Shown here: one piece after another, positions 1-30,347 of the stretch
Layout of the letters: each line of letters starts with the position of its first letter
Numbering within the stretch: the first letter of the stretch is position 1
The notes under the pieces: model-generated
Database searches by the model: none
The model's input: the letters and a program-made list of their open reading frames with translations, nothing else
Told to the model about the DNA's origin: nothing
Sequence record: NC_079184.1
Length of the DNA stretch: 53,998 nucleotides
DNA from: Escherichia phage vB_EcoM_DE15
Strand: one strand, 5' to 3'
Program-made: the position numbers and the translations under genes

Positions 1-92
1 CGATTATATGCGAGAAGAGATTCGATGCGTTAGCGTCGTTTCTCTTTGAGCTAGAATAAGACAAGTAAATTAAATATTTATTTATTCCCAAT

Positions 93-390
93 ATTGCTAC
101 AATATTAAGAGTAATATTAGGAATGCGTAAAGTTAAAACCAAATGGTACATGGTCGGTCAACTGTATCTCCTTCGGAGAAGGTACTTGGACCAATCTTCG
201 TTCACGGTCGGTCAGCTGTATCTCGCCGAAATTTGTTCGAACAGAAGTCCGACTATGAAATAATTTTTTTATAATTTTTTTTTTATTTTTCAATATTGCT
301 ACAGAATTAATGAGACTAGAATTCGTAACAAAGCTACGAGACTCGAATTGTTTCAATATTAACGAGACTCAATCTGTGACAATATTATAA
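93..390. repeat. Repeat-rich non-coding leader: direct repeats GGTCGGTCA(A/G)CTGTATCTC at 152-170 and 206-224; three GAGACT(A/C)(G/A)AAT copies at 312, 338, 364 with 26-nt spacing; poly-A/T tract 250-290; palindromic CAATATTG octamers
   Basis: Read directly from sequence; no + strand ORF in 1-651. Confidence 0.6.
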
Positions 391-567
391 TTTTATTTTT
401 GGGACGGCGAGGAGGGGAAGCCCAACGTCCTATCGGACTTAAAATACGGTCCCTACCCCAACTTTTTCCTACAGCCTATCGGCTTTCAAACAACACCAAG
501 TTAGGCGCTTCGCTTATGGGTCAAGGTCAAAGTCTCCGTGCTGTTGTAACAATGGCACAGGTTTGTG

Positions 568-588
568 ATATTAGTTGGACGTGAATTG
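568..588 (+). promoter_or_regulatory. Phage promoter-like motif (ATTAGTTGG core) upstream of the RNA polymerase gene
   Basis: Copy of the recurring 20-nt motif ACATTAGTTGGAT(A/T)TGAA; here ATATTAGTTGGACGTGAATTG. Confidence 0.4.
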
Positions 589-651
589 TGTAATGGCTAC
601 GCTATTATAATCCGTTTCAGTTAAATCATACACAATCTTGGAGACTTACAA

Positions 652-2592
652 ATGACTACTATCACCACTCAAACTATCAAATCCGTTGTTCCTGCTATCA
701 CTGCTCTGGTATACCGTGCCAAAGAGAAACAGAACTATATGCAGCCTCAGACTTGTGCTATTGCTGCCTTAGCCATCTTCAAGATGATGACGTCTTTCAC
801 TCGTGATGACGTTGTCCCTGCCATCGCGATGGTTGAACTGGCTTCTGCTTCTATTGCTGATGCCAACCGTTATAACAACGATTTGAAAGCAATGCACTAT
901 GTTGACCCAGCTATCAACCTCATTGGTCTGGCTAAGCACTTTGGCTTCATCACCATGAACGAAGACAAGTCATTCCAACAGACTGACACATGGGTTGAAC
1001 TGGTTACAACCAAAGACACCGCAGTGCCATTCACTGAGCGTGTTACATCTGAATCTCGTCGCAAGCCTTTCGTTAAAGGTGGCAAAGTTAAGCCATCCAA
1101 AACTCTGAAAGCTGCAATCGAATTCCTGCAAGATACTGAGTACCATGTGGAGACTGAGATGGTTCGCATCATCCAGTCCATGCTTGAGCAACGTACTTAT
1201 GGTGGCTTGCAGATGCCAGAAGCAATCCAGACTGAACTTCATGTTTGGAACAATGCTGTAGCAATGATGAATCAGGACACACTGTATTCTGACTACTTTG
1301 CTGACAACCGTGGTCGCCTGTATCATGTAGCATGTGCTGGTCCTAACCCACAATCTTCTGACTTTGCTCGTTGCTTGTATTCTCACAATGTTGAGAACAT
1401 CGTTAAGAAGTTTAACGAAGATGGTTCTACTACCATTGCATACAATATGTTCATGGCAGAACTGGAAGACATTTCCGGTGGTGAATGGTGCACTGCCAAG
1501 CGTTTGACTTATGTTGCTCAGAATCCAGCTGGTTCACTTGCTCGCATGATGAACATGCCTAAAGCTGAACGTCCTTCCAAGCCATTCACTTATGTTCGTC
1601 TGGCTCTGGATTGGTTCAAGTTTGAGACTACAGGTGAATGCGATTCTCGTGTAGGCTTTGGCTTAGATGCTAAATGTTCTGGTACTCAATATCTGGCATT
1701 CATTGCTGGCAATATGGAAATGGCTCGTGCAACAGGTCTGGTTGATTCTGAGACTAAAGCATCTGACCCATACCAGTTGAGTCTTCGTGAACTGTTGAAG
1801 CTGTTGGACAAGTCTTCAATGAAACCATCTCCTGAAATCATGGATGAATTCTTGAATCCGAAAGCTGGTCGTAAGTTTATCAAAACTCCGTACATGGCTA
1901 TTCAATATGGTGGTGGTAAAGCTGCACTAACTGGTTCATCTGACTTCATCAGCTACATGACGGAAGCTCTCCAGATTCCTATGGAGAAAGCTGAGGCATT
2001 TGCTGAACTGTGTGTAGAAGCAATCCATAACGCATTGGGTGCTAAGATTAACATGTTCATTGAGAAAGCTGCTGAGGCTGCATACAACCGTTGTGTTGAA
2101 CTCAACAAAGAGTACATCACATATCGTCACACTGATGGTCAGGTTGTAATGAAGCCTTGCTTCCCATCTCGTGAAATCTGTGAGGCATTCAGCATTCGTG
2201 TTGACAGCCAAACTCGTGTTATCTTTGGTCAGATTCAGGAGAATAAGCCTTGGACCATTCGTGAATCCAACCCAACTAAAGAAGAATTCAAGCGTACTTT
2301 CGTTGTTAACTACATTCAAGGTATTGACGCATTGGTTGCTCGTACTGTTGCAGTTAAAGCTAAAGAAGCTGGTCTTCGTGGTTTCACTTCAATCCACGAT
2401 TGTTTCCGTTGCTGTTTGGCAGATGCTCCACGTATGATGGAAGTTATTCGTGCAGCATATGTTGAAATCTTTGTAACCAACAATCAATTCGAGAATCTGT
2501 CTAAGCAACTTGGTGGCATTCAGATGTATCATGAGAACATCGTAACTGAAGAACTCCTGATGTCTGAACACGCTTACTACTTCTGTCAATAA
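652..2592 (+). CDS. Single-subunit (T7-type) DNA-dependent RNA polymerase, compact 646-aa form
   Basis: Motif A GLDAKCSGTQY (T7 DGSCSGIQH), motif B RKFIKTPYMAIQYGG (T7 RxxxKxxxxxxYG), motif C IHDCF (T7 HDSFG); only ~130 aa precede the palm region. Confidence 0.8.
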   Translation: MTTITTQTIKSVVPAITALVYRAKEKQNYMQPQTCAIAALAIFKMMTSFTRDDVVPAIAMVELASASIADANRYNNDLKAMHYVDPAINLIGLAKHFGFITMNEDKSFQQTDTWVELVTTKDTAVPFTERVTSESRRKPFVKGGKVKPSKTLKAAIEFLQDTEYHVETEMVRIIQSMLEQRTYGGLQMPEAIQTELHVWNNAVAMMNQDTLYSDYFADNRGRLYHVACAGPNPQSSDFARCLYSHNVENIVKKFNEDGSTTIAYNMFMAELEDISGGEWCTAKRLTYVAQNPAGSLARMMNMPKAERPSKPFTYVRLALDWFKFETTGECDSRVGFGLDAKCSGTQYLAFIAGNMEMARATGLVDSETKASDPYQLSLRELLKLLDKSSMKPSPEIMDEFLNPKAGRKFIKTPYMAIQYGGGKAALTGSSDFISYMTEALQIPMEKAEAFAELCVEAIHNALGAKINMFIEKAAEAAYNRCVELNKEYITYRHTDGQVVMKPCFPSREICEAFSIRVDSQTRVIFGQIQENKPWTIRESNPTKEEFKRTFVVNYIQGIDALVARTVAVKAKEAGLRGFTSIHDCFRCCLADAPRMMEVIRAAYVEIFVTNNQFENLSKQLGGIQMYHENIVTEELLMSEHAYYFCQ

Positions 2593-2600
2593 GAGAAACA

Positions 2601-2630
2601 GGGCTGGCAATAGCTGGCCCTATTCTTGTT
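2601..2630 (+). terminator. Hairpin (8-bp stem incl. 2 GU, AATA loop) followed by T-rich run after the RNAP gene
   Basis: GGGCTGGC-AATA-GCTGGCCC then TATTCTTGTT. Confidence 0.4.
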
Positions 2631-2693
2631 CATCAACAACTAAATCCCAATATTCAAGCAATATTGCTGCATGTAATATTGCTCCGATATTCG

Positions 2694-2714
2694 ACATTAG
2701 TTGGATATGAAGTA
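2694..2714 (+). promoter_or_regulatory. Phage promoter-like motif ACATTAGTTGGATATGAAG
   Basis: Member of recurring 20-nt motif family. Confidence 0.4.
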
Positions 2715-3670
2715 AAAGAATACGGAGAAATATTCCGCATGTCATGTTGAATCATTCTAGAAACATTCAGCATGTCAGCTTTGAGTTACAGCGTTGTAAT
2801 GATGTGGCAATCATTGAACTCCCTGGGAAGGCCACCTATAGTTCCAGCAACCATGACTTAGAGTAGGAATATCTATCCGAAACTTGGACTTCATTGTAGT
2901 TTGGTGTGCTTCATCGTGAGAAAGGTTGTGATAACTTTCGTAAGCAGGTGTTGAACTAACAACAGAACATCGTGTTAGCCATCTTGATTAAGTTACAAGA
3001 AAGTCAACAAATCAGCATGTCTATTAGTAACAATCTTGTTCCTTCTCCTATTATCAAGGCCCACCCACAAGCCGGGAGATAACTTTGACAAGACTGGAAC
3101 TTTTGGACATGCTTCTTTCTTTCTACAAGAATTCGAAAGAAGAGAAGAGTCGGAGCAAAGCCGCGAAACTAATCCCGTAGCCCGCCCCCGATTTTGAGCA
3201 ACAAATATTGTGACAATTGCGTCGCAGTATGGCATGTAAATATTGCTACAAATTGGCATGTTGGAATGTGGCAGAATTGTTAGAGGACTAATCACCTCGA
3301 AGATACAATCGTCTACCAATCTGGCATGTTAATTTTGTAACAGTATTTGTGCCAATTTCGCATGTAATAGTTGTATCAGTATTGACCCAATATTCTTGCA
3401 ACCCGCATGAATACTGGCTTCCAGCCAAGCGAAGGCTTTATCATCGCATGTAATATTGTGACAATATTGGGATAAAACCCTTTATTTAAATCATTTAGTT
3501 TATTAATTAAATGGTCGGTTTTCTGTACATAGGTATTCAACTGTTTGTGCCAAATACAAACAAGTTGGCTGCTTCTACAGAACTCCAGTGCTACAAATGT
3601 TCGTGCCAATCTGCTGCAATTTATCTCATTTGGCGGGGTAATATTGTATTAGGTTGGTACGTCATTATTT

Positions 3671-3692
3671 CGATTAGTTGCATGTGAATAAG
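3671..3692 (+). promoter_or_regulatory. Phage promoter-like motif variant GATTAGTTGCATGTGAATAAG
   Basis: Member of recurring motif family, one core substitution. Confidence 0.3.
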
Positions 3693-3964
3693 ACCAAATC
3701 TCTGTAAATTCTGTGACAGATTTTAGAGAGATTATGTCTCCAAGCTAATCATTGTAGTTCTTCGGCACTTAATGTGTCACATATATAGCCTGTGAAAAAC
3801 GTGTGGTTTATTGCTGGATTGCAACGCGCCCACCAGACTAGGGAGTCCGTGATGGCGGCACACAGGAATACTATATAACTCCCTACAACTTTAAGGTGGA
3901 TTGAGGTAAGACAAGACCTCCACAATCGTTCTGTAGGGAGTTTTCTTTAACTTGGGAGAATAAA

Positions 3965-4213
3965 ATGGATACTGTGACTAAAGCTGCTTACTTTAAAGAC
4001 TTGTCAGATGGTCAAATATTTTCTATTCGCTCTGTAAAGTGGATTAAAGTAAATGAATCAGACAAGTACAATGCTGTAAAGTTCTTTGATTCAAGCAAGG
4101 CATGTACTTTTAGTGACAATATTGTTGTAAATATTGAAGTCGAATTAGAGCCAGATGATTCAAATGATGAAATCATTCTGCGTAAAACTGTTGGATACAC
4201 TAAAGGATTCTGA
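3965..4213 (+). CDS. Hypothetical early protein (82 aa)
   Basis: ORF with GGGAG RBS upstream of ATG. Confidence 0.5.
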   Translation: MDTVTKAAYFKDLSDGQIFSIRSVKWIKVNESDKYNAVKFFDSSKACTFSDNIVVNIEVELEPDDSNDEIILRKTVGYTKGF

Positions 4214-4214
4214 A

Positions 4215-4445
4215 ATGGATTATGCACTGTATCACTATATAAGCAGGACTGGGCTTGTTCGTCACGCTTTGGTCAACATTAAAACCAAAGACATACTGTT
4301 GGCTGGCTTGTCAATTTACGAAAACAATTTAGTATGGAAACGTGCTGTACATCCTGGACATGTTTGGGATGTAATTCAGTCTGACAAATACCACAAAATT
4401 GTTGCAATGGCTAACCGACCAGAGCACATCAAGCCGAGGAAATAA
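4215..4445 (+). CDS. Hypothetical early protein (76 aa; ORF track gives 4155 start)
   Basis: ATG at 4215 directly after upstream stop; tight gene packing. Confidence 0.4.
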   Translation: MDYALYHYISRTGLVRHALVNIKTKDILLAGLSIYENNLVWKRAVHPGHVWDVIQSDKYHKIVAMANRPEHIKPRK

Positions 4446-4447
4446 TC

Positions 4448-4636
4448 ATGGACTTCATCGTCTACTTTAAGTTAAATGGTGTAGAGCAAAGTTTGTACTT
4501 CAATTCTTTACTTCGTTTGCAACAGTGGGCGGAGAAGTTTGTTGGTTACGACTTTGATTACATCAATGCATGTACAACTGACGAACATGAGGAAATCGTG
4601 TTCAGTTCTTTAAATCAAATTCTGGAGGCCAAGTGA
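4448..4636 (+). CDS. Hypothetical early protein (62 aa)
   Basis: ORF, ATG start, packed with neighbours. Confidence 0.45.
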   Translation: MDFIVYFKLNGVEQSLYFNSLLRLQQWAEKFVGYDFDYINACTTDEHEEIVFSSLNQILEAK

Positions 4637-4824
4637 AGAGCAAGATTCTTAAGTCAGCAATGTATAATCTGCATTTCGGACTCAGCTACCCTACAGTAAA
4701 GCGTCAAGAGAAACGATTTTCACGACTACCTGCACGGACTGTTGCCAAAGAGGTTAAGAAGGCGAGCGAGATTCTAAAGTTCGTTATGTGGAAACGTGTT
4801 GTATTAACTCCGGAGACCAAATGA
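4633..4824 (+). CDS. Hypothetical early protein (63 aa, GTG start)
   Basis: ORF in track; start uncertain. Confidence 0.35.
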   Translation: MKSKILKSAMYNLHFGLSYPTVKRQEKRFSRLPARTVAKEVKKASEILKFVMWKRVVLTPETK

Positions 4825-5087
4825 GCCAGTTTAAGTTAAAAGCAGATTTAATCGAGTTGGCCTCTTATGAAGAGAAAATCGAATTCATCCAAGAACGTTT
4901 GGTTGTCAACTACGGTGGTTGGATTGATGTTTCTACAAATGAGTTGGTGGTTCGTATCAAGGAAGAGTTTGGTATTGAAATCACTAACAAACAGTTTTAT
5001 GAAGATGTTCTCACAGATAAAGTTATTCGAGGCATCACAAACAATTTCATGTCCAGCTTTATGGAAGGTGGGCCACGTTTAAAATGA
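4821..5087 (+). CDS. Hypothetical early protein (88 aa; ORF track gives 4788 start)
   Basis: ATG 4821 in frame of ORF 4788..5087. Confidence 0.4.
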   Translation: MSQFKLKADLIELASYEEKIEFIQERLVVNYGGWIDVSTNELVVRIKEEFGIEITNKQFYEDVLTDKVIRGITNNFMSSFMEGGPRLK

Positions 5088-5248
5088 AGAAGCTCAAATA
5101 TATGACCAAAACGGTTACATATATGGCTATGTATGGTGCTTCAAAGCGTAAGGCTAAGAAATTGGCAAGAGCTGCAAATCCTCGTATGCCAGCACGTAAA
5201 GTGGCCAAAATCGTTAATCTGGTATTTGGCAATTGGAGTATTAAGTGA
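5084..5248 (+). CDS. Small basic protein (54 aa)
   Basis: ATGA overlap with upstream stop; translation MKKLKYMTKTVTYMAMYGASKRKAKKLARAANPRMPARKVAKIVNLVFGNWSIK. Confidence 0.3.
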   Translation: MKKLKYMTKTVTYMAMYGASKRKAKKLARAANPRMPARKVAKIVNLVFGNWSIK

Positions 5249-5427
5249 ATTATGAGAATCTGCTATTAAGAACTAGTGGTGGGATGCTCATACTGACCAC
5301 ACCTGAGTTTCATTTCACAAGGGTATACTCCGAAGAATTTAAATCCTGGTTCCCAGCAAATCTAAAAACACGATGGCTTAAAGATTGTGTGCCTGTTGGG
5401 AAGAATGTAAAGCTAAGGAGTAAATAA
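5245..5427 (+). CDS. Hypothetical protein (60 aa, GTG start)
   Basis: ORF in track only. Confidence 0.25.
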   Translation: MNYENLLLRTSGGMLILTTPEFHFTRVYSEEFKSWFPANLKTRWLKDCVPVGKNVKLRSK

Positions 5428-5600
5428 TGAACGACCAGCAATTCAACACATTCATGCAGCAAATTAATCATCAAGAACTGATGGATGCCATTAAAGGCAA
5501 GAAGCCAGTCGAACGTCAATATCGTAAAATTGATAATTATATGCCAACAATCATTGCATGTGTTGGTGTTGCTATTGTTCTCTACTTCCTGGTGAAATAA
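5427..5600 (+). CDS. Small protein with C-terminal transmembrane segment (57 aa)
   Basis: AAGGAG RBS 5415-5420; hydrophobic C-terminus TIIACVGVAIVLYFLV. Confidence 0.4.
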   Translation: MNDQQFNTFMQQINHQELMDAIKGKKPVERQYRKIDNYMPTIIACVGVAIVLYFLVK

Positions 5601-5686
5601 TGTCGATTGCTAAGAAACTGTTATTCTGTATCGTAATGTTCCCTATGGTGCTGCTCGTTGTGGGCAGCTTCATGTACTTAAACTAA
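5600..5686 (+). CDS. Very small membrane peptide (28 aa)
   Basis: TAATG overlap; MSIAKKLLFCIVMFPMVLLVVGSFMYLN. Confidence 0.3.
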   Translation: MSIAKKLLFCIVMFPMVLLVVGSFMYLN

Positions 5687-5695
5687 GGTAATTAA

Positions 5696-6004
5696 ATGGC
5701 TTCTTTACTCGAATTCTCAAATATTGCAAATGTTGCTAAGAATTCTATTCCGGAAAATCCGGACGTAATTGCGTACATGCGTGTTGATGTAAGTTTGTTA
5801 GCTTTTGTAATGGACCACATCAACCTTGTTGAAGCGCAGTTATCTCAGTCTTACGAAACAGTTGACACTCTTCGTGGACTTCGTACAGCAGAGCAACAGG
5901 CTTATGCTGACCTCATGGAGCAAAAGAACAAGCTCCAAGAACAACTGGCAGACGCACTTCAACAAATTGAAGACATGAAGCCACCAGCAGAATCAACCAA
6001 ATAA
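5696..6004 (+). CDS. Hypothetical protein with coiled-coil C-terminus (102 aa)
   Basis: ORF with RBS. Confidence 0.5.
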   Translation: MASLLEFSNIANVAKNSIPENPDVIAYMRVDVSLLAFVMDHINLVEAQLSQSYETVDTLRGLRTAEQQAYADLMEQKNKLQEQLADALQQIEDMKPPAESTK

Positions 6005-6022
6005 TCAAACTTAGGAGTTGTT

Positions 6023-6283
6023 ATGGCTACCAAAACAGGCATGATGATTGTCCCAAGCCGTAATAACTCTTTAAGCGGCTTTACACCATATAAAATCTAC
6101 GAAGTGATTTCTGGCACTGGTGAAGCAAACCTGTCAGAAGTTGCTTTGAAGTTGGGCCGTATGGTCCACTCCGAAATCTCCTGTAACGTAGTTGATGATG
6201 AAGGTAAAATCCGTTTTGTAACAATGGATTTCTTTCGTGAATTTAACCTCAAATCTGAATTAGGAGTCCTGTATCATGAATGA
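6023..6283 (+). CDS. Hypothetical protein (86 aa)
   Basis: ORF with GGAG RBS. Confidence 0.5.
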   Translation: MATKTGMMIVPSRNNSLSGFTPYKIYEVISGTGEANLSEVALKLGRMVHSEISCNVVDDEGKIRFVTMDFFREFNLKSELGVLYHE

Positions 6284-15014: not shown

Positions 15015-16104
15015 GTTGCCGATGGCAAACTTGAGAGACTAAGCTAAATCGATCTGGCATGCACTGGAAGATTTCCGGTGCTGCCTTGAACCCATTCTGA
15101 AAGGAAGAGTGGGCTTCAATGAGCATTCTTGTGATTAGAGTTGGGAGGTAGGCCGATGCCCAAGCTCATGGCCCAGACAAGAGTGTTCATTGAAGTTACT
15201 TCAATATGGATTGTCGCCAAGTTGTGGAAGGACGTGCACACAGATTTAACGAAGAAAAGTAACAGCCTGAGAACTGTGAAAATTTCCCGTTATGTCGTGG
15301 GGAAGTGCACCATAGCTTGGGTTCTTCACGTAGATATTACTCAGATATTTGCGGCTCGCTGAATGTGAGCATCCATATTGAAGTAGTTTTCTGAGTCTTA
15401 CGACGGGCCTAAACTGCCTGAAGTTATTGCGACTGTTTTATTCATTTAAAATAAATGCAAATGATTCTGAAATGCGAGTTGCGGCTTAATTAAATTTAAG
15501 TCCTCTCCGTGGTCTTCCAATCCCACGTAACCAAATTTGGCGCATTGTGGCTTCGAGATGTGATTAATAAATCGGAGCAATAATTAATTTGTATTCTGCG
15601 ATGCAATGCAGGCTTAAGTCCCTCAGTGCGCGTGGGGATGTGACAGAGTACAAACTTAATTATGCAGTTGGATATTTCTAGAGGACGGACGAGCACACTG
15701 GAATGTCTTCAATTGGTTTAGTGTGAGAAGCTATGCCAATATGAAACGTAACTCCTTGGGGAAGTGCTCCTCTGGATTTCCCTCCACACAGGAATCTCAA
15801 GCCTGTGGCAGCGACTTCGAAGCTGCACTGCGTAACCTAAATTCACCCTAAAGTGAGTTGCCCTGAGTATGGAAATAAACTGCTCATAACCGATGGTATC
15901 TACAAAGGTAGATTAAATCAGGTTGCCTGTTGGTACTTGGGTTCAACACCTGCTTGCACTCGCAAAGTAGTGCCTCGTACCTGAGATGAAGTGAGTCGGG
16001 ACCATCAATCCCACGTTATGTCAAAACACAGTAGGCGGCTCACGGATTCTACAAGCCTCGCAGTTCGGGAAAACCTGCGTTATCAAAACCCCCCTCTTTT
16101 ATTT

Positions 16105-16196
16105 GGACGAGTAGCTCAGAAGGTTTGCATTGTGCTCAGTCAGGTAGAGCAATCTGTTCGACAGATGTGTCGTTGGTTCGAATCCAACCTCGTCCA
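16105..16196 (+). tRNA. tRNA-like gene (anticodon loop GUUCGAC, anticodon UCG, Arg) carrying a 20-nt insertion in the D-loop; possibly pseudo-tRNA
   Basis: Acceptor GGACGAG/CTCGTCC, TA at 8-9, D-stem GCTC/GAGC, T-arm GTTGG-TTCGAAT-CCAAC, discriminator A; D-loop 29 nt with duplicated GCTCAG. Confidence 0.4.
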
Positions 16197-16228
16197 CCCA
16201 CTTTAATAATAGCAATACTGGAGTCCTT

Positions 16229-27514: not shown

Positions 27515-27721
27515 ATGTTAGAACAGTTGGAAGAACTTCTTTCACATCTTAATGCGGAAGATAACGAAATGGCCTTAGAGTTTAAGGCCAAGTTGAAACA
27601 ACTCCAGGATAAAGCAGACAAAGATGCCTTGTGGCGTGAGTGTCTGGTATCCGGTGGAGTTGATAATTGGTCCTGGTATTCCGAATCCCTTCAGGAGTAT
27701 TGGGACACCTACGGCTATTAA
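27515..27721 (+). CDS. Hypothetical protein (68 aa)
   Basis: ORF. Confidence 0.4.
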   Translation: MLEQLEELLSHLNAEDNEMALEFKAKLKQLQDKADKDALWRECLVSGGVDNWSWYSESLQEYWDTYGY

Positions 27722-28123: not shown

Positions 28124-28309
28124 ATGCGCACAATACAATGTCCTAACTGCCATTATGAAATTGCAGAAGATGATTTCATAACGCAACAATGTCCTATCTG
28201 TGATTCATATATGCCACTAAACCGCCTGTATTTAAAGGCCGATTCTGGTTTAGGCAGCATCATTCGCATCAATCCCGTGCAAACTCAGCCATTAGTGGAT
28301 TGTGATTAA
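28124..28309 (+). CDS. Small zinc-ribbon protein
   Basis: CPNCHYEI...CPICDSYMP. Confidence 0.4.
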   Translation: MRTIQCPNCHYEIAEDDFITQQCPICDSYMPLNRLYLKADSGLGSIIRINPVQTQPLVDCD

Positions 28310-30347
28310 AAACAAAGAGAACGAATCAATGTCAAAGACTGATGACCTCGGACCGGAGTTTAATGATACAGTAGCCTCGTATCTTGCCAAGCACTACGGT
28401 GACGTATTAAAAGTCTCAAGAGAAAGATTCTGTATTCTATCTTTGCCATTGCTCCGTCGATATATTTCAGAAAATACTGCAATAGTTGACAGCTATGAAG
28501 AACAAATTCAAGCAGAGTTAGAAGGCCAGGGTCTTGAAAACGATGCTGTATTGCGTTCCGTTTTCAGAGCACAACTTGAGCGTCTTCGCTCTGGCGACAA
28601 GAAAGACTCAACTGCCTATGCAGACGAGTTGAAGAAAGGTATTCAAGCTGGTGTTACTGACCGTGTTGTGGGTTCTACTTTGGAAGAGCCAAACTCGGAA
28701 TACGATAACACCGATGAACTCGTAGACAAGATTCTGCACGACCCACATAACGTGGACCCAACTGTAATCCCTGCCAAGGTTGCAGAACGTGTTCGCAAAA
28801 TCTTGATGAAAAGTTTCGAAGCCTTTGGTAAATGGCAGTTCCATATCCAGATGGGATTTCCATTTCAAGCACAAGACTTTCACGATGTGATATTTAACGT
28901 TGGGCAAAAGGTTGTTGATGGTGAGATTGACCGCTTAATAGTGACCATTCCTCCACGACACTCTAAGACCCAGCTTATGAGTATTGCATTGCCCTTGTAT
29001 TCATTTTGCCACAATGAATCAAGTCACAACATTATCACCTCGTATGCAGAAGACGTTGTTCTTGAATCGAGTGGTTACATCCGTGCTGTAATGATGGACC
29101 CACTGTTCCAACGCATATTTCCGAAGGTGAGAATCGACCCCAACAAACGTTCACTTGAGCGTTGGGGTACAACCAAAGCTGGAGTTATGCACGCAGTACC
29201 TACTGGTGGTAAGCTAACTGGTAAAGGTGCTGGTCTTCTTGTTGCAAAATACTCCGGCTGTTTCGTGGTGGATGACGTTATCAAACCGAAAGATGCTTAC
29301 TCTGACACAGTTCGAGCAGAAATCAACGACCGATTTGATAACACCTTTATGTCCCGTCTTGCCAACGATGGTTGCATAACTGATTCATACGGAAACCAAA
29401 TTAAGTGTGCCCGTACACCAATGGTTATCATCATGCAGCGAGTTCATGACCAGGATTTAGTTGGTTACATACTCCGTGGTGGCTCTTCCGACAAATACCA
29501 TTATCTCAATATCCCAGCGATTATTGAGAAAGGTGTTGGAAGTGCTGAGTGGTATGATAAGTTAATCAAGAAGCAGAACTACACTCATGCTATTCCCATT
29601 CTGTATAATTTGAACAGGAAGGAAGAGAAGTCTGCATTATGGCCTTCACGTAAGAGTTTAGAATCTCTGGAGGCAATGAAAGAGTCTAACCCATACACAT
29701 ACAATTCACAGTATGCTGGCGACCCATCTGCACAAGGCCACGGCCTTATCAAAGAAGATTGGTGGCAAGAGTATGAACCAGACGTTTTCGACAGAAGTCG
29801 CATAGTCAGAAGTTTTATCACAGCGGATACGGCATCAACTGCCAAATCTTATTCTGATTATTCGGTCCTTAAGCATTGGGGCGTGACTAAAGAGCGTGAT
29901 GTTTATTGTTTAGATATTATGCTCGGTAAGTTTGAAACTCCAGAACTCAAGACTGCTATTATCGACTTCTGGAACAAATGCAACAAGTTGGACTTGAAAT
30001 GTGTAGGTTGTATTCCTCGTGCATTGTACATGGAAGACAAGTCTGCTGGACAATTCTTGAACCAACAATTCATTAGAGATGGGAGTGTCCGAGTTTTACC
30101 ACTGCCTCGTGATGGCATTAATGGTAATGACAAGGTAACTCGATTCCTTAACGCAATCCCATATTTCTCGCAAAAGAGAATATTCTTCCCTGCTGGTCAT
30201 GAACACATTGACCACGTTAGACGTGAAATACTTGGATTCACTTCTTTGGGTAGTGGTACTGGACACGACGATTGCGTCGATAACGTTTCAGATATGGTTG
30301 CAATCGAATTCTCTGGCCCAAGTGCCAACTACTCCGCATGGATGTAA
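28302..30347 (+). CDS. Terminase large subunit (alternative ATG start 28329)
   Basis: Size 681 aa, position before portal, ATPase/nuclease-like layout. Confidence 0.7.
   Translation: MIKNKENESMSKTDDLGPEFNDTVASYLAKHYGDVLKVSRERFCILSLPLLRRYISENTAIVDSYEEQIQAELEGQGLENDAVLRSVFRAQLERLRSGDKKDSTAYADELKKGIQAGVTDRVVGSTLEEPNSEYDNTDELVDKILHDPHNVDPTVIPAKVAERVRKILMKSFEAFGKWQFHIQMGFPFQAQDFHDVIFNVGQKVVDGEIDRLIVTIPPRHSKTQLMSIALPLYSFCHNESSHNIITSYAEDVVLESSGYIRAVMMDPLFQRIFPKVRIDPNKRSLERWGTTKAGVMHAVPTGGKLTGKGAGLLVAKYSGCFVVDDVIKPKDAYSDTVRAEINDRFDNTFMSRLANDGCITDSYGNQIKCARTPMVIIMQRVHDQDLVGYILRGGSSDKYHYLNIPAIIEKGVGSAEWYDKLIKKQNYTHAIPILYNLNRKEEKSALWPSRKSLESLEAMKESNPYTYNSQYAGDPSAQGHGLIKEDWWQEYEPDVFDRSRIVRSFITADTASTAKSYSDYSVLKHWGVTKERDVYCLDIMLGKFETPELKTAIIDFWNKCNKLDLKCVGCIPRALYMEDKSAGQFLNQQFIRDGSVRVLPLPRDGINGNDKVTRFLNAIPYFSQKRIFFPAGHEHIDHVRREILGFTSLGSGTGHDDCVDNVSDMVAIEFSGPSANYSAWM

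Follow-up and report, generated by a model that had tools for sequence, protein, structure and literature searches.

A conserved array of GCATGT boxes and palindromes at the homology-mapped inner boundary of the terminal repeat in a Chaseviridae coliphage

The DNA analyzed in this work (hereafter, the window) is the 53,998-nucleotide sequence of Escherichia phage vB_EcoM_DE15 (NC_079184.1), and the element in question is a dense array of short repeats in its gene-free stretch 2593-3964. Sequence comparisons identify the source as a Carltongylesvirus, family Chaseviridae, that is, a phiEcoM-GJ1-like coliphage. The ICTV, the international committee for virus taxonomy, describes the members of this family as myoviruses with long terminal repeats of ~3 kb and a T7-like RNA polymerase (RNAP), and states that their promoters "have not yet been identified" (PMC12842549). 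The record opens in the leader of the RNAP gene and ends in an nrdB-like gene, which is the same arbitrary opening as that of the phiEcoM-GJ1 record, and all genes of the window are on the + strand. The 646-amino acid product of the RNAP gene is a single-subunit enzyme that shares 99-99.7% identity with those of Escherichia phages Bp7 (99.7% at the amino acid level), ST32, SA91KD, and JL1, and about 92% with that of phiEcoM-GJ1. The gene-free stretch occupies the 1372 bp between the stop codon of this gene (2592) and the ATG of the first early gene (3965). A first-pass annotation of this DNA had placed a non-coding region right after the RNAP gene, and this was upheld: PHROGs returned no family for the seven open reading frames (ORFs) of the leader and the non-coding region. 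In the records of relatives the region is either unannotated or carries inconsistent small ORFs on both strands.

The same annotation had reported at least eight copies of a motif of about 13 nucleotides in the stretch. The clustering stood but the length of the motif did not. The full 13-mer, GCATGTAATATTG, occurs exactly only twice (2669 and 3446) and four times at ≤2 mismatches, and at ≤3 mismatches its genome-wide count (26, with 21 expected) shows no excess over chance. Its conserved core is GCATG(T). Half of the 20 copies of GCATGT found on the + strand of the 54-kb window are located within the stretch (binomial P = 1.6e-11), while the other ten, spread over 52.6 kb, represent chance density. 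The orientation is strongly biased, with 11 GCATG sequences on the + strand, the direction of all genes, and one on the - strand. GJ1, Mangalitsa, SA91KD, PYps23T, and Faunus share the single inverted GCATGT box, which reads GCATGA in 4HA13. No consistent helical phase was found among the spacings of the GCATGT boxes.

A second element was identified around the octamer CAATATTG, described in the first-pass annotation as palindromic and common to the stretch and the leader. There are six exact copies of the octamer in the window when 1.4 are expected, a number reached in none of 100 shuffled sequences, and it constitutes half of a 17-bp palindrome-like element, AATATTG-N3-CAATATT (7-3-7), that we call the B element. 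At ≤3 mismatches the B element has 16 matches (4.8 expected; none of 100 shuffles produced as many), and ten of them, including all those with ≤1 mismatch, are in the leader or the non-coding region. The copy at 3452 is a perfect palindrome, AATATTGTGACAATATT. The palindrome often starts 6-7 nucleotides after a GCATGT box (GCATGT-a-AATATTG-N3-CAATATT), and the logo obtained from 60 units of six genomes was AAtty-n-GCATGT-nAwn-TTG-nn-ACAA-nn-TT. The palindromes of the leader have no GCATGT partner. Elsewhere in the genome the motifs of the array do not occur above chance. Since the core GCATGT, the octamer, and the palindrome all exceed chance, the repeats noticed at first sight are confirmed.

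Conservation was assessed in an alignment of eight genomes from six genera, with Escherichia, Erwinia, and Pectobacterium as hosts and, according to its label, Aeromonas. The first-pass annotation had been prepared to drop the idea of a functional array if the repeats were not conserved in relatives and had no binding or transcriptional activity; they are conserved across the six genera, with boxes and palindromes at orthologous positions against a background that is otherwise about half diverged. Compared with the five other genera, conservation was 85% at the GCATGT boxes, 68% at the palindrome arms, 53% at the palindrome spacers, 76% at the promoter-like motifs considered below, and 52% in the remainder, and only 1 in 5000 random hexamer sets matched the conservation of GCATGT. 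Conserved arms on both sides of a free spacer are the pattern expected of a dimeric protein that reads duplex DNA. All the genomes examined had this same strand bias, which amounted to 13:1 in GJ1 and to 15:1 in 4HA13, for example.

More distant relatives have comparable regions. Myduc, a phage with a Proteus host and an RNAP that is 66% identical, has 13 copies of GCATGT in a 1.35-kb non-coding region. The sister subfamily Nefertitivirinae, with an RNAP that is ~35% identical, has a non-coding region of ~1.1 kb likewise located 3′ of the RNAP gene, where the repeat on the + strand is GTATGA. This repeat is partly tandem, with an iteron-like period of 12-13 nucleotides; in pAh6-C 7 of its 19 genome copies are in the region and none is on the - strand. 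Because the sequence of the array changes between subfamilies, the protein that reads it is more likely encoded by the phage than by the host.

The ends of the direct terminal repeat (DTR) were transferred to the window by homology from seven related records. Both copies of the repeat are present, with no mismatches, in the records of JL1 (2995 bp), PM1 (2665 bp), and Y2 (2608 bp); the DTR was annotated with PhageTerm in those of Mangalitsa (1-3234), 4HA13 (1-3120), and Myduc (1-3202); and the Faunus record was opened exactly at the homologous junction. Since these records put the DTR ends at ~435-439 and ~3147-3151, the array straddles the inner DTR boundary. By this mapping the window has a DTR of ~2.71 kb, made up only of the RNAP gene with its leader and of 555 bp from the start of the non-coding region; the other ~815 bp of that region are unique DNA. 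GCATGT boxes 2669 to 3015, as well as the inverted box, are inside the repeat and boxes 3232 to 3446 are outside. The palindrome-type sites nearest to the ends are TGTGACAATATT, which ends 52 nucleotides before the left end, and AATATTGTGACAAT, which starts 57 nucleotides after the right end. In addition, the DTR is enclosed at about -330 and +304 nucleotides by a 27-nucleotide inverted repeat whose two halves, 81-107 and 3451-3477, are 85% complementary, and the left flank is colinear with the right flank once the latter is reverse-complemented (z = 5.3 for the window, 4.0 for Faunus). This mirror symmetry is partial. In the sister subfamily, the BUCT696 record ends in the middle of its array at a purine-rich sequence, ..GCGAGCGTGACC/ (..GTGACC/; here and below a slash marks an end or junction), that resembles the DTR end of Myduc, ..GGCAGGTGAC/. 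From these sequence comparisons, an array that spans both sides of the right DTR boundary looks like a feature of the family.

Two other observations concern the boundaries. The sequence TCGGR is found at both of them, at 432-439 (TATCGGAC/TT..) and at 3148-3156 (GAAG/AGTCGGAGC), with similar arrangements in JL1, PM1, Faunus, and Y2, and it may be the core of the cut site. Myduc carries a tandem duplication (2780-3200) of ~200 bp just inside the right DTR boundary, and the duplicated segment comprises a GCATGT box together with the conserved CCTATTATAAAGCCCC..GGGA block. The coordinates of all features are collected in Table 1.

Table 1. Features of the window from the leader to the first early gene, and dispersed copies of their motifs.
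Feature	Position	Strand	Remarks
B elements, leader	90-106 (perfect), 292-308, 344-360; half-site 377-387	+	matches starting at 90, 292, and 344 have ≤3 mismatches; 50-350 nt outside left DTR boundary
Two GGTCGGT-N4-CTGTA motifs	leader 1-438		outside left DTR boundary
Tandem ACGAGACTC..CAATATTA units	leader 1-438		outside left DTR boundary
AT-rich tract, leader	250-290		outside left DTR boundary
TATAAT	386-391		leader
Left DTR end (..CCTATCGGAC/TTAAAATACGG; ..CCTATCGGAC/TTAAAATACGGTCCC)	435-439	.	by homology
Weak copy of dispersed promoter-like motif (TATTAGTTGGACGTGAAT)	569-586	+	upstream of RNAP gene; likewise in other genera
Single-subunit RNAP gene	652-2592	+	sole gene within the DTR of this genome
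Intrinsic terminator	2600-2621	+	3′ of RNAP gene; fold z-score -3.9
First module: B 2649-2665, GCATGT 2669-2674, B 2675-2691, promoter-like ACATTAGTTGGATATGAAG 2694-2712	2649-2712	+	kept in 6 genera
Two GCATGTCA boxes (2737, 2770)	2737-2775	+	inverted repeat; can pair as imperfect hairpin, z-score -2.5
Small hairpin GAACU..AGUUC (GAACUCCCUG..AGUUC)	2816-2844	+	conserved in seven genomes; compensatory changes in 3 of 9 base pairs
GCATGT box	3015-3020	+	inside DTR
TCCTATTATCAAGGCCCACCCACAAGCCGGGA, most conserved block of the region	3046-3077	+	95% across 5 other genera; 70-100 nt inside right DTR boundary
Sole inverted GCATGT box of the stretch	3107-3112	-	35 nt inside right DTR boundary
Right (inner) DTR boundary (..GAAAGAAGAGAAG/AGTC/GGAGC)	3147-3151	.	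by homology
Main array: GCATG(T) 3232, 3256, 3324, 3360, 3405, 3446; B 3204, 3239, 3331, 3378, 3452	3204-3468	+	just outside DTR
AT-rich tract, ~80% A+T	3473-3510		directly after last and best unit (3446-3468)
Conserved TGGTCGGTTTTCTGTAC and TTGTGCCAAATAC	3512-3557	+	TGGTCGGTTTTCTGTAC has relatives in leader at 146-170 and 200-224
Promoter-like GATTAGTTGCATGTGAAT (GJ1 "putative phage promoter 2")	3672-3689	+	holds eleventh GCATG
Terminator-like hairpin followed by U-run	3878-3941	+	z-score -3.35; just 5′ of ribosome-binding site of first early gene (ATG 3965)
All exact GCATGT boxes of 2593-3964	2669, 2737, 2770, 3015, 3232, 3256, 3324, 3360, 3446, 3680	+	start positions
GCATGA, variant box of the stretch	3405	+	start position
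B elements, non-coding region	2649, 2675, 3204, 3239, 3331, 3378, 3452		start positions, ≤3 mismatches
CAATATTG octamers	89, 291, 2659, 3462, 4117, 44138		exact matches
ACATTAGTTGGATGTGAA matrix sites	566, 2692, 3669, 7825, 8341, 12342, 12483, 12620, 13811, 14247, 14579, 28287, 43077	+

Several of the features listed in Table 1 have counterparts in other genomes. The layout of the leader palindromes is also found in Y2, PM1, Faunus, and phiA050, and the aligned genomes have an AT-rich tract at the position equivalent to 3473-3510. The small hairpin downstream of the first module may act as RNA or as single-stranded DNA. The TCCTATTATCAAGGCCCACCCACAAGCCGGGA block includes a -10-like TATTAT. The sequence ATGGTCGGTyNNCTGTA, conserved in other genera, has three copies on the + strand, two in the leader (146-170 and 200-224) and one after the AT-rich tract (3507-3531); the TGGTC within it is a preferred recognition site of the T7 primase. 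Downstream of the promoter-like motif at 3672 there is a conserved TTYGGCACTT-N-TGTGTCACAT box (3761-3782). Between this box and the terminator-like hairpin, which is replaced by a simpler hairpin in Faunus and phiA050, a 96-nucleotide segment (3783-3878) is an insertion/deletion polymorphism: it was found in only 16 records of Carltongylesvirus/Shigella phages and is absent from GJ1, Mangalitsa, 4HA13, and the other genera. Together, the promoter-like motif, the box, and the hairpin of 3672-3964 could specify a short leader RNA or an attenuator.

The first-pass annotation had proposed a dense protein-binding platform and listed promoters, operators, replication, and packaging as possible functions without choosing among them; the location at a DTR boundary had been missed. 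A platform is consistent with elements that are fixed in strand and with palindromes that have conserved arms and a free spacer. Our tentative preference is for a platform of many sites to which DNA-binding proteins of the phage would bind, labelling the DTR junction for packaging and for the formation of genome ends. One or more sequence-specific proteins encoded by the phage would bind the multi-copy sites and so mark the repeat/unique junctions in replicating concatemers. The bound proteins would recruit and orient the end-forming and packaging machinery (the terminase, possibly with an HNH nuclease), which would cut ~50-60 nucleotides away at the TCGGR-containing sites. The array would then be a pac/cosB-like recognition array in which the one-way GCATGT boxes would give polarity. 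This interpretation is favoured because the elements cluster at both places where ends must be cut, the nearest palindromes are 52 and 57 nucleotides outside the cuts, the 27-nucleotide inverted repeat brackets the DTR, the flanks are mirror-colinear in the window and in Faunus, and the units of the sister subfamily are iteron-like and centred on the presumed boundary. As at terminase sites, repeated putative protein-binding motifs flank and adjoin the predicted cut positions.

Known packaging signals offer partial parallels. The R-sites of lambda cosB and the hexamers of P1 pac are terminase recognition arrays of ~120-160 bp that are bound by a known small terminase or by PacA. Like them, the array has several short, partly palindromic sites that flank a specific cleavage position, an arrangement that gives polarity; unlike them, its sites span hundreds of base pairs, there are two cut sites 2.7 kb apart, and no small terminase is recognised. 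In T7, the SRL and SRR repeat arrays reportedly flank the terminal repetition (Dunn and Studier, 1983), and polymerase-related signals take part in the processing of concatemers. The T7 RNAP pauses at the concatemer junction (PMC3276506). The resemblance resides in short repeats just inside unique DNA on both sides of the terminal repeat and in the T7-like RNAP of both phages. However, the T7 repeat is 160 bp long and has heptamer arrays, whereas the repeat is 2.7 kb long here and the elements are a 6-nucleotide box and a 17-bp palindrome, with GCATGT one-sided and present also within the repeat.

A number of points weigh against a packaging function. The DTR ends of this genome are predicted by homology transfer, and the record and paper of PYps23T describe a 2339-bp repeat with other boundaries, equivalent to window positions 580 and 2705 (PMC8762354). 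Both ends of the repeat of this Yersinia phage fall within copies of the promoter-like motif (ATTAGTTGGA/YGTGAA), and these outlying boundaries, which are at odds with the seven other records, could have arisen artefactually because the motif is shared or could be genuine alternative ends. Between the DTR flanks, mirror similarity is marginal in Y2 and not significant in PM1 (z = 0.6) and phiA050 (z = 1.4). The left DTR boundary has no GCATGT boxes. The sites are spread over ~800 bp, up to 470 nucleotides from the cut, which to our knowledge is wider than any known terminase recognition site. All boxes point with transcription and two modules abut promoter-like motifs, which would fit transcription control equally well. 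Finally, the TerL gene was located at 28302-30347, and neither Pfam, PHROGs, nor a fold search brought up a recognisable small terminase subunit (TerS). The candidates considered and rejected were the ORFs that precede TerL; they code for a dUTPase, a gp5.9-like protein, a 109-amino acid protein of no known function, and a 61-amino acid one with sub-threshold zinc-ribbon-like matches. The AlphaFold model of the 109-amino acid protein (pLDDT 73.5) has an alpha/beta fold with no significant match in the PDB and is not TerS-like. The gp5.9-like protein (68 amino acids, ORF 27515-27721) matches the T7 gp5.9 RecBCD inhibitor family (Pfam PF25708, E = 1.7e-9), a function relevant to the protection of linear ends.

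A possible, if doubtful, alternative is that the array controls transcription. The GCATGT boxes would be core promoters or loading sites for the phage single-subunit RNAP, consisting of GCATGT, an A/T-rich stretch, and TTG, with the start near that G, and a phage regulator would use the overlapping palindromes as its operators. Such an array would drive and time rightward early transcription, possibly including a transcription-coupled genome entry as in T7. The boxes have the same orientation as the genes to be served, as T7-type promoters do, with the 11:1 strand bias in the direction of all genes, and the array is located between the RNAP gene and the first early genes, bracketed by terminators (2600-2621 and 3878-3941). 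Two modules abut the promoter-like motifs at 2694 and 3672, the second of which contains GCATGT, and the spacing within the unit logo is fixed (GCATGT-nAnn-TTG-nn-ACA). Furthermore, the subfamily with an RNAP of only 35% identity has a changed motif, and the ICTV lists no identified promoter for Chaseviridae (PMC12842549).

A better promoter candidate is dispersed over the genome. The phiEcoM-GJ1 record (EF460875) marks nine sites as "putative phage promoters", two of them homologous to window positions 2694-2712 and 3672-3689, and a matrix was built from these nine. The dispersed motif that it describes, ACATTAGTTGGATGTGAA, has 13 copies in the window; each of them is on the + strand and most lie a short way upstream of a gene. 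It corresponds to these unverified annotations and is the best candidate for the promoter of the phage RNAP. The k-mer enrichment method that recovers ACATTAGT in the window found no dispersed intergenic motif in pAh6-C. The units of the array score <12 bits with the ACATTAGTTGGATGTGAA matrix, below its threshold, and judged by sequence the GCATGT/palindrome array is a motif class apart, having in common with the dispersed motif (TTGGATGTGAA) only the core GNATGT, an overlap that speaks for transcription control. As a T7-type RNAP promoter consensus that recurs before gene blocks, GCATGT was rejected: ACATTAGTTGGATGTGAA recurs in this way and GCATGT, at chance density in the remaining 52.6 kb, does not. 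Ten tandem promoters without intervening genes would also be unusual, the 12-13-nucleotide units of the sister subfamily are too close to be independent promoters, and the leader palindromes lack a GCATGT partner. With respect to the regulator, a search with Pfam and PHROGs for a DNA-binding protein among ten early ORFs (3965-6283) yielded nothing but families of unknown function.

Less likely is a replication origin of the T7 type, in which transcripts from promoter-like units would enter the AT-rich tract 3473-3510, the initiation complex would be organised by the repeats, and the TGGTC-containing motif at 3512 would be the primase site for a T7 gp4-like primase-helicase. The primary origin of T7 consists of two phage promoters and an AT-rich region after gene 1, and it reportedly lies just downstream of the RNAP gene (Fuller and Richardson, 1985). 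The position of the array matches it, directly 3′ of the RNAP gene, and so does the order of promoter-like elements followed by an AT-rich tract and a TGGTC motif. As at replication origins, an AT-rich element adjoins the repeated sites, in this case immediately after the best unit (3473-3510 after 3446-3468) and likewise in the aligned genomes; the conserved TGGTCGGT motif includes 5′-TGGTC-3′, though TGGTC is only a 5-mer; and a helicase/primase, a DNA polymerase, and a single-stranded DNA-binding protein are encoded, as annotated in the phiEcoM-GJ1 record. The leader has similar parts in mirrored order (GGTCGGT, AT-rich tract, palindromes). On the other hand, iteron-like palindromes are found only here and are not needed by origins of the T7 type, the distances differ, and 780 nucleotides separate the promoter-like motif at 2694 from the AT-rich tract. 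A search of positions 1-4000 found no DnaA boxes on the + strand and two relaxed matches on the - strand (3683 and 3791), and no relevant match to the IHF, CRP, Chi, or T7 class II pause (ATCTGTT) patterns.

More speculative still, and improbable in our opinion, is the combination in which the GCATGT boxes would be the loading sites or promoters of the Chaseviridae RNAP at the inner edge of a DTR with no other cargo than the RNAP gene and would serve a two-stage programme: the repeat would be delivered and the RNAP made first, and the RNAP would then engage the array to pull in and transcribe the rest of the genome and would later mark the concatemer junction for end formation.

Among known systems, the closest analogue of the array is Repeat Region 3 of T5, a 1.2-kb untranslated region mostly within the long terminal repeat (LTR). 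It is rich in direct and inverted repeats and has been conserved in T5-like phages (10.1101/866236). The T5 repeat regions are reportedly more conserved among relatives than many of the LTR ORFs (10.1101/866236). Both regions are untranslated, ~1.2-1.4 kb long, and dense in direct and inverted repeats and palindromes, and both are located at the inner end of a long terminal repeat and overrun it into unique DNA, by 270 bp in T5 and ~800 bp here. The motifs differ, however, and the T5 LTR has 10 kb and many pre-early genes while that of this unrelated family has 2.7 kb and only the RNAP gene. Any likeness in function is putative. This close architectural match (10.1101/866236) raises the possibility, which we consider remote, of a T5-like injection stop: the repeat-rich region on the inner side of the left terminal repeat would make the incoming DNA pause, which would allow expression of the RNAP before the remaining genome enters. 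A DTR that carries only the RNAP gene and its promoter would suit such a mechanism, and so would the long latent periods of relatives (80-90 min). The pairs of DnaA boxes that Davison proposed for T5 are absent here, and we know of no two-step DNA entry in phages with contractile tails like this one.

The chances are slimmer that the units are host sigma-70 early promoters of the extended -10 type, with the TG of GCATGT as TGn and the conserved A and T as -11A and -7T. The logo can be read in this way, since TG is at positions 3-4 and is followed by A at +7, T at +11, and A at +18 (in 40, 49, and 42 of the 60 units, respectively), which matches TGn-nAnnnT with the start at A. Some units make good sites, namely TGTTAATTT at 3327 and, in Mangalitsa, Faunus, and Y2, TGTTAGAAT, but only 11 of the 60 units have T at position -12, and the invariant GCA before TG is left unexplained. 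Neither paired -35/-10 hexamers 16-18 bp apart (10 within 1-4300, with 12.1 expected) nor the strict extended -10 TGnTAnnnT (2, with 1.9 expected) were enriched; the relaxed TGnnAnnnT was, but the GCATGT units fit that pattern by construction. In addition, the motif differs in the sister subfamily, although the same host sigma-70 recognition is expected there. Thus, of the early promoters that the first-pass annotation had suggested, those for the host enzyme were not borne out, while its remark that the spacing does not fit sigma-54 was accurate: TGGCAC-N5-TTGCW has no match in the window, and the gap between TGGCAT and TTGC in the units is 7 nucleotides instead of the 5 of sigma-54.

The least probable explanation is a non-coding RNA of ~1.2 kb between the promoter-like motif (2694) and the terminator (3941) whose repeated GCAUG motifs or hairpins would act as RNA, for example by titrating an RNA-binding protein. 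It would account for boxes that are all on the transcribed strand between these two signals and for the compensatory changes in one small hairpin, but shuffled sequence folds as well as most of the segments tested do, the free spacers of the 17-bp palindromes and the copies of these palindromes in the leader indicate that duplex DNA is recognised, and there is no match to an Rfam family (none reached the gathering score in 1-4000, where two weak matches had E values of about 0.7-0.8, and gathering and permissive thresholds yielded only the tRNA at 16.1 kb and two chance-level matches).

Some observations on other parts of the genome are recorded here. The tetranucleotide GATC occurs only once in the whole window (15051), while base composition predicts ~204 copies; CTAG is depleted as well (32, with 204 expected). 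The number of GATC sequences is 2 in phiEcoM-GJ1 and 198 in the sister-subfamily phage pAh6-C, which suggests selection in the enterobacterial lineage against a GATC-targeting restriction system or a Dam-dependent one. The sole tRNA (16104-16200) is unusually long (97 nucleotides) and was identified by ARAGORN as tRNA-Leu(CAG); the phiEcoM-GJ1 record labels its one annotated tRNA as a tRNA-Arg that "may contain an intron". Two records, PP952070 (given as Staphylococcus phage Pel53) and PP763568 (given as Aeromonas phage phiA050), share ~74-84% nucleotide identity with this enterobacterial phage group in non-coding DNA, and the hosts given for them look doubtful, perhaps as a result of contamination or mislabelling.

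Repeat-dense untranslated regions at terminal-repeat junctions are a known kind of element, exemplified by T5 Repeat Region 3 and T7 SRL/SRR, which are themselves poorly understood. The terminal repeat and two promoter-like motifs were already on record for this group. The GCATGT/palindrome array is annotated in none of the records examined, and the repeats are not mentioned in the papers searched, including those on ST32, 4HA13, flopper, Tiny, and PP101. The array, its conservation throughout the family, and its position astride the DTR boundary appear to be undescribed.

Chaseviridae are myoviruses with a T7-like RNAP that have been proposed for the biocontrol of Shiga toxin-producing and enterotoxigenic Escherichia coli, Erwinia, and Pectobacterium. 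The array provides them with an apparently family-wide, hitherto unannotated cis-element, with exact motifs and coordinates, where the terminal repeat meets unique DNA. Many deposited genomes of the family were opened arbitrarily and have spurious small ORFs annotated across this region; the junction sequences TATCGGAC/TTAAAATACGG and GAGAAG/AGTCGG let the true ends be placed by homology. If it held true, the two-stage programme would unite a terminal repeat built like that of T5 with entry and processing coupled to transcription as in T7, all in a phage with a contractile tail.

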